Origin: Mobula hypostoma
Lineage: Eukaryota
Assembly: GCF_963921235.1 (NCBI RefSeq)
Contig: NC_086108.1
Location: forward strand, 90,646,001-90,710,000
Direction of reading: 5' to 3'
DNA: 64,000 nt
Shown: positions 8,569 through 42,752 of the stretch, in pieces
Numbering within the stretch: position 1 is the stretch's first letter
Layout: each line of letters opens with the position of its first letter
Notes under the pieces: generated by a model
What the model was told of the DNA's origin: nothing
The model's input: only the letters and a program-made list of their open reading frames with translations
Databases searched by the model: none
Made by a program: the position numbers and the translations under genes

Positions 8569-8730
<162 letters not shown>

Positions 8731-10371: not shown

Positions 10372-10887
10372 CCTTCATAAGCTGGGATGTTGAGTATAAA
10401 AATTTGGAGGTAATGGTGAGGTTGTGTAGGATACTGGGGAGGTTGCATTTTTGTCACCTTGCTATAGGAGAACTGTTGTTAAAGTGGAGAGAGTACAAAA
10501 AGATTTACAAAGATGTTGCCAGTACTTAAGGCACTGAGTTATAGAGAGAAGTTAGACGGGCTAGTGCTTTATTCCTTAGAGAGTAGGAGACTGAGAGGTA
10601 TATAAAATCATGAGAGGAATAGATGGGGTGAATGTACTCAAGTCTTTTTCTCAGCATCAGGATACCAGGAACTAGTGGTCATGGGTTTAAGGTGAGAGAG
10701 GGAAGATTTACTAGGAAGTTGAGGGGCAGATTTTTTACACAAAGGGTAGTACCGTTGTGGAATCAGCAGCCTGGGGAAGTGGTTAAAGTAGGTGCAATAC
10801 CAAATTTGAAAAGATAGCCGGACAGCTACAGTACATTGATTGGAAAGGTTTAGAAAGGCCAAACATTGGGAAATGGGACTAGTGCAT

Positions 10888-12120
10888 CTTCTTCAGCAGT
10901 ATAGTGACTCAAGTGACCCGAAGGTGGCTAGAGCAGGGATCCAAGTAAGTACTGGCAGGAAGTGGAGGGCAGAGGAAGCTGTTCAGGAGGCAGAGGCGAG
11001 GCTGCGTCACAGGAGGCTGGTGGGAGTGGTCACATGAGGCCGAGCTGGGCTAGGATCCTTTCCAACTCCCCAAATGGACACCAGAGGGAAGGAAAGGCGT
11101 CGTCCAGTTCAGGAGGAGGTGAGGGCAGTAGTGGAGGAGATGAGAGCCTGCAAGGCGGTGGGAATGAAGCAACAGGGAGCTTGGACAAGATGGGAGAATG
11201 CGGTTGAGAGGGAAGTGACCTAGGCTGATCTTTGGAAAGCCGAACCACACCACATCCAATTTCTCATCCAGGCAGTGTACGATGTGCTTCCAAGCCCATC
11301 AAACCTGCACACATGGGGCGTGCCCACTGTGCTCCAAGCGAGGAACCCTGGAGCACATCCTCAGCGGCTGCGCAAGGGCACTTGGTGAGGGACAGTACAG
11401 GTGGAGGCATGATCAGGTCCTGAAGACCATCGCTGAAGCCGTCAGCGCAGGAGTTGAGTGGGCGAAGCGGTCCCGACCCTCCAACCAGACCGTTACCTTT
11501 GTCAGAGCTGGGGAGCAGCCAATACCCGCCAATAGAACATCTGCAGGCATCCTGACCTCTGCAAGGGACTGGCAGCTGTTGGTAGACCTCGAAGGGCAGC
11601 TGAAGTTCCCCAGCCATATCGCAGCCACCACCCTGCGACCAGACATTGTCCTAGTGTCTGAGTCTACTAAGCAAGTGGTGCTGCTGGAGCTGACAGTCCC
11701 ATGGGAAGATCGCTTGGAAGAGGCCTTTGAAAGGAAGCTCTCCAAGTACGCAGGACTGGTCAGCAACTGTCAGCAGGCTGGATGGAGAGCGAGGTGTCTC
11801 CCAGTGGAGGTTGGTTGTAGGGGATTCGTAGCCCGTTCTTTAGTTAGAGCCTTCAGCATTTTGGGCATCGAGGGAGAGAGGAAGAGGAGAGCCATCCGCA
11901 GTACCACCGATGTGGCAGAGAGGGCCTCAAGATGGCTGTGGCTCAAAAGAGGGGAGCCATGGAGTCATAAGTAGCTAGCCATCTGGACACAAGCTGGGGT
12001 CTGATCAGCCCCGGCTGGGTCACCTGGAGGAGGTTGTATGATGTTGAAAGTCCTGAAACACCCGATGATTCCAGGAACATCACTGAAGATGTGTCCAGAA
12101 GCATCAATAGATGTATGTAC
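10888..12120 (+). mobile_element. 5'-truncated HERO-type non-LTR retrotransposon (restriction-like endonuclease)
   Basis: ORF 11282-11974 has a CCHC knuckle (CPLC...HILSGC), then YRWRHDQVL, RPDIVL, ELTVPWE, KLSKY and PVEVGCRG, the PD-(D/E)xK RLE motifs. The upstream frame has stop codons. Clade assigned from recalled motif similarity. Confidence 0.85.
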
Positions 12121-13364
12121 ACAGCATGGTCCAGTTGGGCCGAAGGACCTGTTTCTGCACTTATCTGCATATCATTCTTCCTGCCTCATTTTTCAGTGTT
12201 CAGGGTAATGGAGATTTCATCACTGGCTCTCGCTTCTCTGTTTGCAGCTCATGCATTCATATAACGTCTGAGCCCCATGCTGCATGACCTGCCTCCTTTA
12301 TTGTGTCATTCCACACAGCATGGTGCTCAACTGGGGCAAATGATTTGAAATGAAAATACCTATGCACACGAGTTTACCGAGTTCCCCTTCCTGTGTTTTC
12401 CTCACCTCCATGGCTGCCTTTTGTCCATCTTGTGGCTACCCCAGGGAGATTACTTGGTACCTCCTACTAACAATGACACAGCAGTTGTGAGTTCCTCATG
12501 CAGACATCAATATTCAAACTAAATGTATATCAAAGTACACGTATGTCACCATATACAACCCTGAGATTCACTTTCTTGCATGCATATTCAATAAAGCCAA
12601 TAACCATAACAGAGTCAATGAAAGACTGTGCCGAGAGGGCAGACAACCAATGTGCAAAAGACAGCAAACTGTGCAAATACAAAATGAAAGAGAAACAAAA
12701 GAAATAATAATTATCGGAAGAAGTAAATAAGCGATAAATATTGAGAACATGAGATGAAGAGTTCTTGATAGTGAGTCCATAGGTTGTGGGAACAGTTCAG
12801 AGATGGAGCAAGTGAAGTTATCCCCTTGGAGCCTGATGGTTGAGGGGCTTGATAGAAACCCACAATTTTAGTGCCCACCACAGTGCAGCCAGCATTCAAC
12901 ATACTTTTGAAAATGTGGGTGGCTGAACTCCAATCAATCAAGAGAAGTTTCATAAAGATGGCCATCTCGTTTCGTCTCTTTTTCTTCAGCAGCTTGAATT
13001 TCTTAACTCATCGGGTTCAGTGAGCGCAGTAGCACAGCCAACTTCGTTGACCAACCTCTCTTATACTCTCTATAACAACAGGCTACTTGCCTGATATCTG
13101 ATGCTGGATGAGGCAAAGTAATTAAATACTGAGTGGACCAAACCTGTTGATTCCAAACCCCAACATAGAACCCACCCCTTGGTCACAAGCCTCGCCATTT
13201 TCTTGACTGCTGTCGGCAGCTGAACCGGACTGTTTGCTGTCTTATTATCTGAATCTGAGATTAGCTTTACGCACCATAACCACTTTATCACCAAGACATA
13301 TTGTATTATTACTCATCGCTGCCCCTGTCTCACTCCACCTGTTGCTAACTCATCAGGGCTTTTA

Positions 13365-13997: not shown

Positions 13998-14177
<180 letters not shown>

Positions 14178-41380: not shown

Positions 41381-42752
41381 TGTCACAAGGGGAGGCGGTG
41401 CTGGGAGCAAGGGTGGACCCAAATGCAAGACACATCTTGTGAGGTTAACTTAAATTAAGTTTATTGCTCGTTACAAGGAGAGCAAAGCAGAAGCAGGAAT
41501 AGCGTAATGGACAAGGACTCAGGCCTTGGACTAGGCTGGGACTAAGGGTCTGGGCTAGGACTCGGAATCATGGACCACCGGGGCCAGGACTTGAGACTTG
41601 GAGCTGCCGGGGCCAGGACTTGATACTTGGAACCTCTGGGGCCGGGACTTGATACTTGGAGCCTCCAGAGGCAGGACTTGAGACTTGGAGCCACCGGGGC
41701 CGGGACTTGAGACTTGGAGCCTCCGGAGCCAGGACTTGAGACTTGGAGCCTCCAGAGGCAGGACTTGAGACTTGGAGCCACCGGGGCCAGGACTTGATAC
41801 TTGGAGCCTCCAGAGGCAGGACTTGAGACTTGGAGCCTCCGGGGCCGGGACTTGAGACTTGGAGCCACCGGGGCCGGGACTTGAGACTTGGAGCCACCGG
41901 GGCCGGGACTTGAGACTTGGAGCCACCGGGGCCAGGACTTGAGACTTGGAGCCTCCGGAGGCAGGACTTGAGACTTGGAGCCTCCAGAGGCAGGACTTGA
42001 GACTTGGAGCCGCCGGGGCCAGGACTTGAGACTTGGAGCCACTGGGGCCGGGACTTGAGACTTGGAGCCTCCGGAGCCAGGACTTGAGACTTGGAGCCAC
42101 CGGGGCCAGGACTTGATACTTGGAGCCTCTGGGGCCAGGACTTGAGACTTGGAGCCGCCGGGGTCAGGACTTGAGACTTGGAGCCTCTGGAGCCAGGAAC
42201 TCTTCTTATTCACGGGACAAACTCAGACATAGGACATAAAACACTGAGCCGGGAATCCTCCTTAGACACAGGACGGAGTCGGGACTCTTCTTGACACAGG
42301 GTCAGGACCCTTCCAGGGTACAGGGCCGGGACCCCTTTTAGATGCACGACATGGATACGGAGACCACACATCGAAGGAGAGAATTATAACTGGGCTCAAG
42401 TACGCTCCAAGCCGCAGTGAGCTCTTGACTCACCCCCAGCGGGTTAACTTTGACTGATCCGTACTGACAAGGGAAGGTGGCTTGCTGGCTCTTGCTTTGG
42501 GAGGAGACTAGGCTTGCTCCGGCCAGATGACATTGGATCGCAGTACCTACAGTGACTCTGTTAACGCTCTCGCCCCGAATAGCTGAAAGCCGGAAACTAT
42601 AAACTGCCGGTTCAGCCGAGAGTAAATTGCCTCTAGTCACCAAGCCCGAGGGACACGGGAAAACAGGGAACCAAAGGGAAACAGGGAGTCAACGGTCCAG
42701 ATCGTAACATAAACAAAGTAAATTTAAAGGGACCCCGATCCGGACCATGACA
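41381..42752 (-). mobile_element. Probable solo LTR (Gypsy-like) carrying a minisatellite
   Basis: TGTCA...TGACA termini; flanks ATGAT / ATGAC; AATAAA and GCATTTGGGTCC near the minus-strand 3' end. Confidence 0.7.
41575..42197. repeat. 29-bp minisatellite, about 21 copies
   Basis: Unit AGGACTTGAGACTTGGAGCCACCGGGGCC, with variants confined mostly to the GC-rich part. Confidence 0.95.

Follow-up and report, generated by a model that had tools for sequence, protein, structure and literature searches.

The natural hammerhead ribozymes closest to the one described here are those of type SGC (HRIMA-1 and its variants). In the accessible text of Eckert 2023 (PMC10085705), this non-circular permutation is reported only from metatranscriptomes, hammerheads are sorted into six block orders, each block being assumed to be continuous, and the stem I-II helix of type SGC is shown by mutation to be needed for cleavage. 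Among autonomous retroelements, Penelope elements carry hammerheads in their repeated end and form head-to-tail partial tandems, and a circular RNA has been proposed as their template (Cervera and de la Pena 2014, PMC4209133, as far as its accessible text goes). The non-LTR retrotransposons R2 and L1Tc carry HDV-like ribozymes at the 5′ end, where these define a linear 5′ terminus (PMC6765202, accessible portion). Hammerhead-made RNA circles and tandem DNA copies in animals are also described in the available part of a preprint on non-LTR retrozymes (bioRxiv 10.64898/2026.07.22.740005).

The window analysed here is a stretch of 64,000 nucleotides from Mobula hypostoma (NC_086108.1, positions 90,646,001 to 90,710,000), in which the 3′ end of a HERO-type RLE non-LTR retrotransposon copy contains a permuted, doubly pseudoknotted hammerhead motif (window positions 11982..12099; all features are on the forward strand). 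HERO elements resemble Penelope in that the hammerhead lies in the repeated end of an autonomous retroelement found as head-to-tail partial tandems, in having U3-A8 core variants, and in the RNA circle proposed below as template. They differ in that their ribozyme is large, self-contained and pseudoknotted and the element is of the RLE type, whereas the Penelope hammerheads are minimal, of type I and thought to act as dimers, in GIY-YIG elements (PMC4209133, in the part available). R2 has the same endonuclease class, and HERO would be a further case of self-cleaving RNA in a non-LTR retrotransposon, its cleavage being predicted; however, the R2 and L1Tc ribozymes belong to another class and position, and HERO copies run past the cut (compare PMC6765202, accessible portion). 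The retrozymes, unlike HERO, are non-coding, of type I and linked to Penelope-like elements, according to the same part of the preprint.

No hammerhead in the tail of a HERO/RLE retrotransposon was found in the literature searched, most subscription journals and the Repbase reports lying outside it, and the examined parts of PMC13580325 and PMC2684134 contain nothing on ribozymes. Judged from its sequence, the motif is a new architectural hammerhead variant in a retrotransposon clade for which none was found reported. It would add an architecture that the published six-block-order scheme excludes, and would extend non-circularly permuted ribozymes to animal genomes, in which they escape both Rfam and standard descriptors.

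The window copy and its family

The element copy (10897..12124) represents the last 1.25 kb of a 3.64-kb unit, as determined by blastn against the full-length unit L031 (95% identity), and belongs to a high-copy family. Its ORF remnant (11219..11974, ending in TAG) was recognized by translation and by its relative P0001, and encodes what we take to be a CCHC knuckle and a restriction-like endonuclease region (PD..E..K), the endonuclease motif being read by eye. The full-length P0001 contains RVT_1; a single ORF with a reverse transcriptase and a C-terminal CCHC and restriction-like endonuclease is the arrangement that characterizes the HERO clade, and it is present here. The ribozyme motif begins 7 nt past the stop of the ORF remnant, in agreement with the preliminary description, and all sequence stretches named there were found in place. 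Downstream of the motif, the element ends in a small terminal hairpin and a TGTAT-containing terminus without a poly(A) tail (12101..12124). Copies of the family end here and other families end similarly, and this terminus is a candidate start site of reverse transcription.

The copy lies in sense orientation within an intron of DPYD, as had been proposed. The downstream exon (14001..14162) matches dihydropyrimidine dehydrogenase by phmmer (E 1e-28), while the upstream exon (8604..8691) was identified by translation, its name resting on the downstream exon; the two are presumably exons 4 and 5. The copy is a decayed, 5′-truncated passenger in the DPYD intron. It was apparently inserted into the 3′ end of an older LINE (10380-10900 and 12125-12160), which we take to be CR1-like, with short microhomology at both ends of the insertion.

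The family is abundant and its copies are unbroken at the predicted cut site, given 1,716 exact matches to a 29-letter pattern spanning this site in the 3.48-Gb genome. Mismatches in stems II and III of the window copy had been pointed out earlier, together with a predicted family consensus of A at 12051 and G at 12034. The two mismatched stems proved to differ in origin. The predicted A at 12051 is present in 48/49 other family copies and C at 12054 in 40/49, so that stem II is perfect (5/5) in the family and the window copy has decayed at both positions. The predicted G at 12034 did not hold, since T is found in 46/49 copies (by eye), and the stem III mismatch is therefore a trait of the whole family; at the corresponding strand of the nearest sister family, L099, stem III pairs 5/5. 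Older HERO families of the same genome (L089, L184, L186 and L187) carry the same ribozyme motif, in some cases decayed, and L089 also has a 208-bp partial copy upstream. Long target-site duplications were clear in just 3 of 22 truncated copies that could be measured, with rough mapping of the 5′ ends.

Architecture of the motif

The motif as a whole was recovered by a descriptor, by covariation, by a covariance model and by a re-parse of the core. It is closed by helix P0, formed by 11982..11991 and 12090..12099, the 3′ strand beginning right after A9 in the junction parse. Hairpin P1 (11992..12016) lies between P0 and stem II. The 5′ strand of stem II (12017..12021, G10.1 at 12017) is displaced upstream of the cleavage block, and is followed by the 5′ strand of helix P4 (12023..12029) and by a non-bulged GA (12030..12031). 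The 3′ strand of stem III and the NUH triplet GUA (12032..12038) precede the predicted cut at 12038/12039, after which come the 5′ strand of stem I (12039..12045) and a few linker nucleotides that connect stem I to stem II at their tips (12046..12049); the spacing from N17 to G12 is 12-19 nt in 46 matches. The segment 12050..12063 comprises the 3′ strand of stem II, the GAAA core (G12 at 12055) and the 5′ strand of stem III, as supported by the family copies. A 3-nt bulge plus GA (12064..12068) then leads into the 3′ strand of P4 (12069..12075), and the 3′ strand of stem I runs into the CUGANGA core (12076..12089; C3 at 12083, A9 at 12089), whose letters were recovered although they were not required.

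Pairing was evaluated in a sequence-only MAFFT alignment with the descriptor matches as rows, where stems I, II, III and P4 are jointly 90.4% paired compared with 63.2% in shuffles (0/500 shuffles as high), a value that for stems I-III is partly by construction, given how the rows were chosen. Two-sided changes in the same helices number 175 compared with 53 in shuffles, and pairing partners slid along the same alignment are 36-49% paired. Individually, stem I is 96% paired with two-sided changes in 4/4 counted pairs, stem II 90% with two-sided changes in 4/5 pairs, and P4 86%. P0 and P4, which both lie outside the descriptor, prefer their own partner over swapped ones among 34 distinct cores (P0, 8.2 versus 5.4 bp; P4, 6.2 versus 4.2; 0/5000 permutations for each). 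The pairing scheme first drawn for the single window copy, including its unusual upstream stem II strand, is thus borne out by the covariation analysis of HERO 3′ regions that had been recommended with it, in which stems I, II, III and P4 all covary. A canonical SGC fold with a downstream stem II strand was also considered and rejected, being only 53.6% paired, about like its own slid controls. Altogether, we consider it virtually certain that the fold is real.

The extra helices had been said to fit without spare bases, and the junction of A9, P0, P1 and stem II is indeed free of unpaired bases in 21/22 parsed rows (of 35). Stems I-III all border the core, with stem II reaching A9 through this junction rather than by a direct bond. 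P0 would be stacked on P1 in a perfect four-way junction, with A9 remaining stacked on G10.1. Kink-turns have a consensus of a 3-nt bulge followed by tandem G.A/A.G between two helices, and the loop between stem III and P4 has a 3-nt bulge and tandem GA/GA in 25/34 distinct cores. The loop therefore appears kink-turn-like, and with such a loop the P4 helix, for which it had been suggested that a dimer or a conformational switch may be needed, should require no dimer.

The block order is unlike that of types I-III, as first noted: the circularly permuted three-way junction of those types, which lacks core pseudoknots, was not found, and Rfam gave no match to a hammerhead or any other ribozyme, either in 10 kb of the window or among 14 loci. 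When folded by nested energy minimization, the RNA forms the flanking helices P0 and P1 and not the core, as expected from its two pseudoknots. The further claim that no known hammerhead has such a topology stands in part only. The cyclic order is that of type SGC (PMC10085705, accessible text), while the motif at a HERO end was indeed not found in the literature searched. Both forms have the order cleavage, GAAA and CUGANGA block (S, G, C), a short linker from the tip of stem I to that of stem II, two pseudoknots and a full core, and P4, which flanks the 3′ strand of stem I and the 5′ strand of stem II and covaries, corresponds to the stem I-II helix of SGC (same text).

The two forms differ in how the blocks are connected. 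In strict SGC, as defined in the accessible text of PMC10085705, the 5′ strand of stem II follows CUGANGA by 1-2 nt; in HERO elements the strand at this downstream position is 54% paired as against 90% upstream, block C is split, and its stem II strand comes first and is brought to A9 by the P0/P1 junction. SGC search patterns demand CUGAUGA followed directly by stem II, and consequently miss the HERO form. In addition, the kink-turn-like loop of HERO elements links stem III to the fourth helix on both strands, which suggests an answer to the puzzle of how stem III is linked to the stem I-II helix in SGC, namely by a kink-turn. From its sequence, the HERO motif would work like an SGC hammerhead permuted once more and opened between A9 and G10.1. 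The stem I-to-stem II linker of HERO families frequently has UAG, UAA or AAA at its end and resembles that of published SGC variants, a likeness that could reflect either a shared tertiary contact or shared ancestry.

Occurrence among relatives

A protein search returned 190 relatives, which among the 120 listed include proteins of fish, lancelets and bivalves. With an alignment of 36 proteins, 316 metagenome stretches were collected, the best 80 of which gave 79 loci with 40-88% identity; these were selected by protein alone, regardless of RNA. The descriptor, consisting of the cleavage block, the GAAA block, the CUGANGA block and the upstream stem II strand, was applied to 68 3′ regions, namely those of 66 metagenome loci for which 150 nt or more was available past the protein match, of the second family of the genome and of the window copy. 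It matched 46/68, as against 0/1,360 dinucleotide shuffles and 0/68 reverse complements, and the matches are not due to chance. From 34 sequences a covariance model was built, which found 78 matches in 85 sources; every match is in sense to the element. Among metagenome loci with at least 200 nt downstream, 55/63 score at least 30 bits, as do, by our own count, 25/32 of the loci outside model building. The low scorers include L157 and L161, which have a full core by the descriptor, L107, L143 and L169, which by eye are broken copies, and L155 and L166, which are short or fragmentary.

When 78 endonuclease regions were placed in a quick tree, the motif proved to be present on every main branch sampled (best 79 of 316 loci), and the four loci without a model match are scattered tips. 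Q7T1J8, Q76IN1 and Q76IN2 group with the elements at an SH-aLRT of 100 in a quick tree built without R2, R4, NeSL or CRE outgroups, and are 60-65% identical to them over the C-terminal region where measured. We take these three proteins to be those of pufferfish Zebulon/HEROTn and HEROFr, and the HERO label used here is based on them. No ribozyme in Zebulon, HEROTn or HEROFr was found reported in the literature searched; HEROTn is listed in the HERO clade in the available part of PMC7650587. The motif is, as far as sequence can tell, ancient and widespread, and was probably carried ancestrally by HERO-type RLE retrotransposons.

One tandem relative, L168, has no match to the ribozyme model or to Rfam, and no other ribozyme was found in it. 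It has the 5′ motif described below and the start of the next ORF, and its spacer, about 430 nt past the endonuclease match, forms long helices and could contain a ribozyme of another class. No relative was found in viral contigs. Contigs of prokaryote genomes yielded four loci, of which three are too short and one is eukaryote-like. In a contig filed as a bacterial genome bin, L181 is a broken RT-endonuclease element with AT-rich simple repeats and looks eukaryotic. A mussel protein shares 97% identity with L160 in the compared part.

Conservation of the catalytic core

Base choice in the core was examined by re-parsing 62/78 model matches by their helices and a relaxed GAAA anchor, all other core letters being left free; the window, L089 (twice), one duplicate and truncated or weak matches were omitted. 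A parse was obtained for 54/62, two of them out of register (L124 and L171). The hammerhead core (C3 U4 G5 A6 N7 G8 A9, G12 A13 A14 and A15.1-U16.1) was found with CUGANGA not required. Two established features of hammerhead chemistry are the NUH rule and the base pair 3-8 of the active conformation; the parsed cores conform to both. U16.1 is present in 54/54, and N17 is C in 21, U in 19, A in 14 and G in none of the 54, related copies not being independent. All four bases occur at N7. Positions 3 and 8 form C-G in 49/54 and U-G in two near-identical elements, while U-A has one true case, L127, the second count being the L124 misparse. The same U3-A8 covariation is described for Penelope hammerheads in the accessible text of PMC4209133. 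U3 and A8 are also present, by eye, in L169, a broken copy of the L127 clade. On these sequence signatures we are confident that the motif would be able to cleave, and such conservation of catalytic rules would not be expected of a mere protein-docking fold.

Genomic layout of copies

Full-length elements of the window family (unit length 3,642 bp) are arranged as partial tandems. In a sample of the 40 best-scoring full-length starts of 305 candidates, 37/40 are preceded by 21-1,027 bp of the element's own 3′ end, and the junction is exact in 37/37 tandems. The upstream piece runs past the cut site in 29/40 and holds a whole second ribozyme in 24/40, so that many full-length copies have a complete ribozyme on each side of the ORF. 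In three of the 40, the copy ends at precisely one unit length (post hoc P about 0.01). The head-to-tail layout recurs in L089, the second family of the genome, and in L128, and 11/38 loci continue from the ribozyme into a conserved 5′ motif. Partial tandems of pufferfish Zebulon were reportedly described by Bouneau et al. 2003. The contig start repeats the element 3′ end in the metagenome loci L101, L108, L119, L127 and L177, four of which are 3.8-4.0 kb long, as expected for a tandem unit assembled as a loop.

The upstream piece and the downstream end of the same locus share 10 non-CpG variants compared with 3.1 expected (26 loci; 3/10,000 permutations). Such sharing points to one copying event or one donor and speaks against a separate, later insertion, while being compatible with either a circle or a tandem transcript. 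At the cut site, 5′ ends are not in excess: two pattern searches gave 2 and 4 matches there, compared with 0 and 3 at control positions, and the 4 include no clean truncation. The ribozyme as a definer of a linear 5′ end was likewise rejected, given that only 1/40 full-length copies (L064) starts within 1-2 nt of the cut. The lack of a pile-up excludes a linear cut template but does not point directly to cutting in vivo. In L081, 10 nt are deleted up to the cut; this was discarded as a cleavage trace because similar deletions occur elsewhere. Since copies are seamless across the cut, the copied template must have been continuous there, either uncut or re-joined.

The 5′ end of the unit, which is absent from the window copy, contains three to four short hairpins with purine-rich loops and TGAC-containing linkers (L031:1540-1640). 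This array has 69% mean column identity in 10 sequences and two-sided changes in 8/22 predicted pairs. It is a candidate protein-binding or translation-start module, undescribed in the literature searched. In L031 (1508-5008), and not in L032, a reading frame that begins with an ATG in the upstream 3′ end continues uninterrupted through the tandem junction.

Possible roles in replication

The preliminary description suggested that the motif could process transcript ends. Simple 3′-end trimming cannot describe the RNA that is copied, as inserted copies are unbroken through the cut site. Taking a core that follows catalytic rules together with a template that is never broken, cutting and rejoining is the simplest explanation. 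We therefore favor, at somewhat better than an even chance, a catalytically competent hammerhead that is ancestral in HERO-type RLE retrotransposons and makes a circular RNA template, a model proposed earlier for Penelope (PMC4209133, accessible text). A read-through transcript would be cut at both tandem ribozymes. The halves of each cut ribozyme would remain held by P0, II, P4 and III, about 28 bp in total with estimated duplex energies of -15.8, -7.1, -9.6 and -2.3 kcal/mol, respectively, whereas in SGC the 5′ product is held by stem III alone (PMC10085705, accessible text). With the halves kept paired by four helices, the permutation would favor re-ligation over release. Exchange of the two identical 5′ halves would then join the ends of the 3.64-kb monomer into a circle. 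Reverse transcriptase, primed at the target nick, would begin about 86 nt 3′ of the cut, circle once and continue for a variable distance, and copying of more than a unit would regenerate the partial tandem and the second ribozyme in the daughter copy; a stop at one unit length would be the polymerase on a circle meeting its own start.

Several observations weigh against a circle. Seamless copies are equally expected from an uncut tandem transcript, and template jumping from end to end on a linear RNA would likewise account for the stop at unit length. Longer priming on a continuing template was looked for in the 3′ flanks and rejected, because the flank matches the unit start at base 1 only (39/57). 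The window family reached thousands of copies despite its fixed stem III mismatch, L168 is a tandem relative without a ribozyme-model match, and tightly held products would slow strand exchange unless a protein helps. One alternative is that the ribozyme serves messenger processing and the start of translation, the insertion template being uncut, or nicked but held, and the tandem being renewed by template jumping. The tandem ribozyme lies about 86 nt before the unit start, followed by the strongly conserved 5′ hairpin array, and precedents exist in R2 and L1Tc (PMC6765202, accessible portion) and in viral hammerheads that start translation (PMC13725137, accessible portion). This reading also fits the catalytic signatures and can coexist with a circle, but it leaves unexplained the exact junctions in 37/37 tandems and why the downstream ribozyme spares the template. 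Moreover, template jumps of the R2 type usually add bases. We consider this reading unlikely as the main explanation, although it is the most probable of the alternatives.

The motif could instead be a hammerhead-derived fold that is inactive or cuts rarely and docks the element protein at the RNA 3′ end. R2-like elements have a protein-binding 3′ UTR, to which the position of the HERO motif corresponds; the lack of breaks at the cut and nested energy folding without the core also agree with docking. It does not, however, predict the avoidance of G at N17 (54/54), the free N7 or the U3-A8 swap, and appears improbable. Still more improbable, and disfavored, is an active ribozyme that cuts 3′ read-through or limits expression in elements whose tandems arise from new copies inserting at old starts. 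A weak target bias resembling the unit junction is in keeping with such self-targeting, and Penelope elements are said to insert beside existing copies (PMC6765202, accessible portion), yet both ends of one locus share variants above chance, and a cut 86 nt before the end would remove a terminus that the copies keep.

Returning to the circular template, we entertain a more specific proposal tentatively, at slightly less than an even chance: HERO elements may be autonomous LINE-like elements that replicate through a self-ligated RNA circle, with a hammerhead that is split at A9/G10.1 and closed by a kink-turn and that clamps the cut ends, joining the RNA rather than releasing it. If this is true, fish, bivalve and other animal genomes hold thousands of copies of a natural hammerhead architecture that falls outside the six block orders of Eckert et al., and the HERO form may share ancestry with the SGC ribozymes of viroid-like circles. 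It would also supply a testable mechanism for the partial tandems of an R2-related clade of interest for genome engineering. The idea of a circular template, so far put forward for Penelope, could be tested with a compact ribozyme and dozens of natural variants.

Other observations

A long tandem repeat at window 41540-42220 has open frames in all three minus-strand phases. The endonuclease region of the window copy (11318-11974) is 85-88% identical to proteins of eel, flatfish and herring (P0003-P0009), while the window-family endonuclease has 58% identity to that of the second family of the same genome, far below the fish matches. These sequence identities are consistent with a possible horizontal transfer of the window HERO family.
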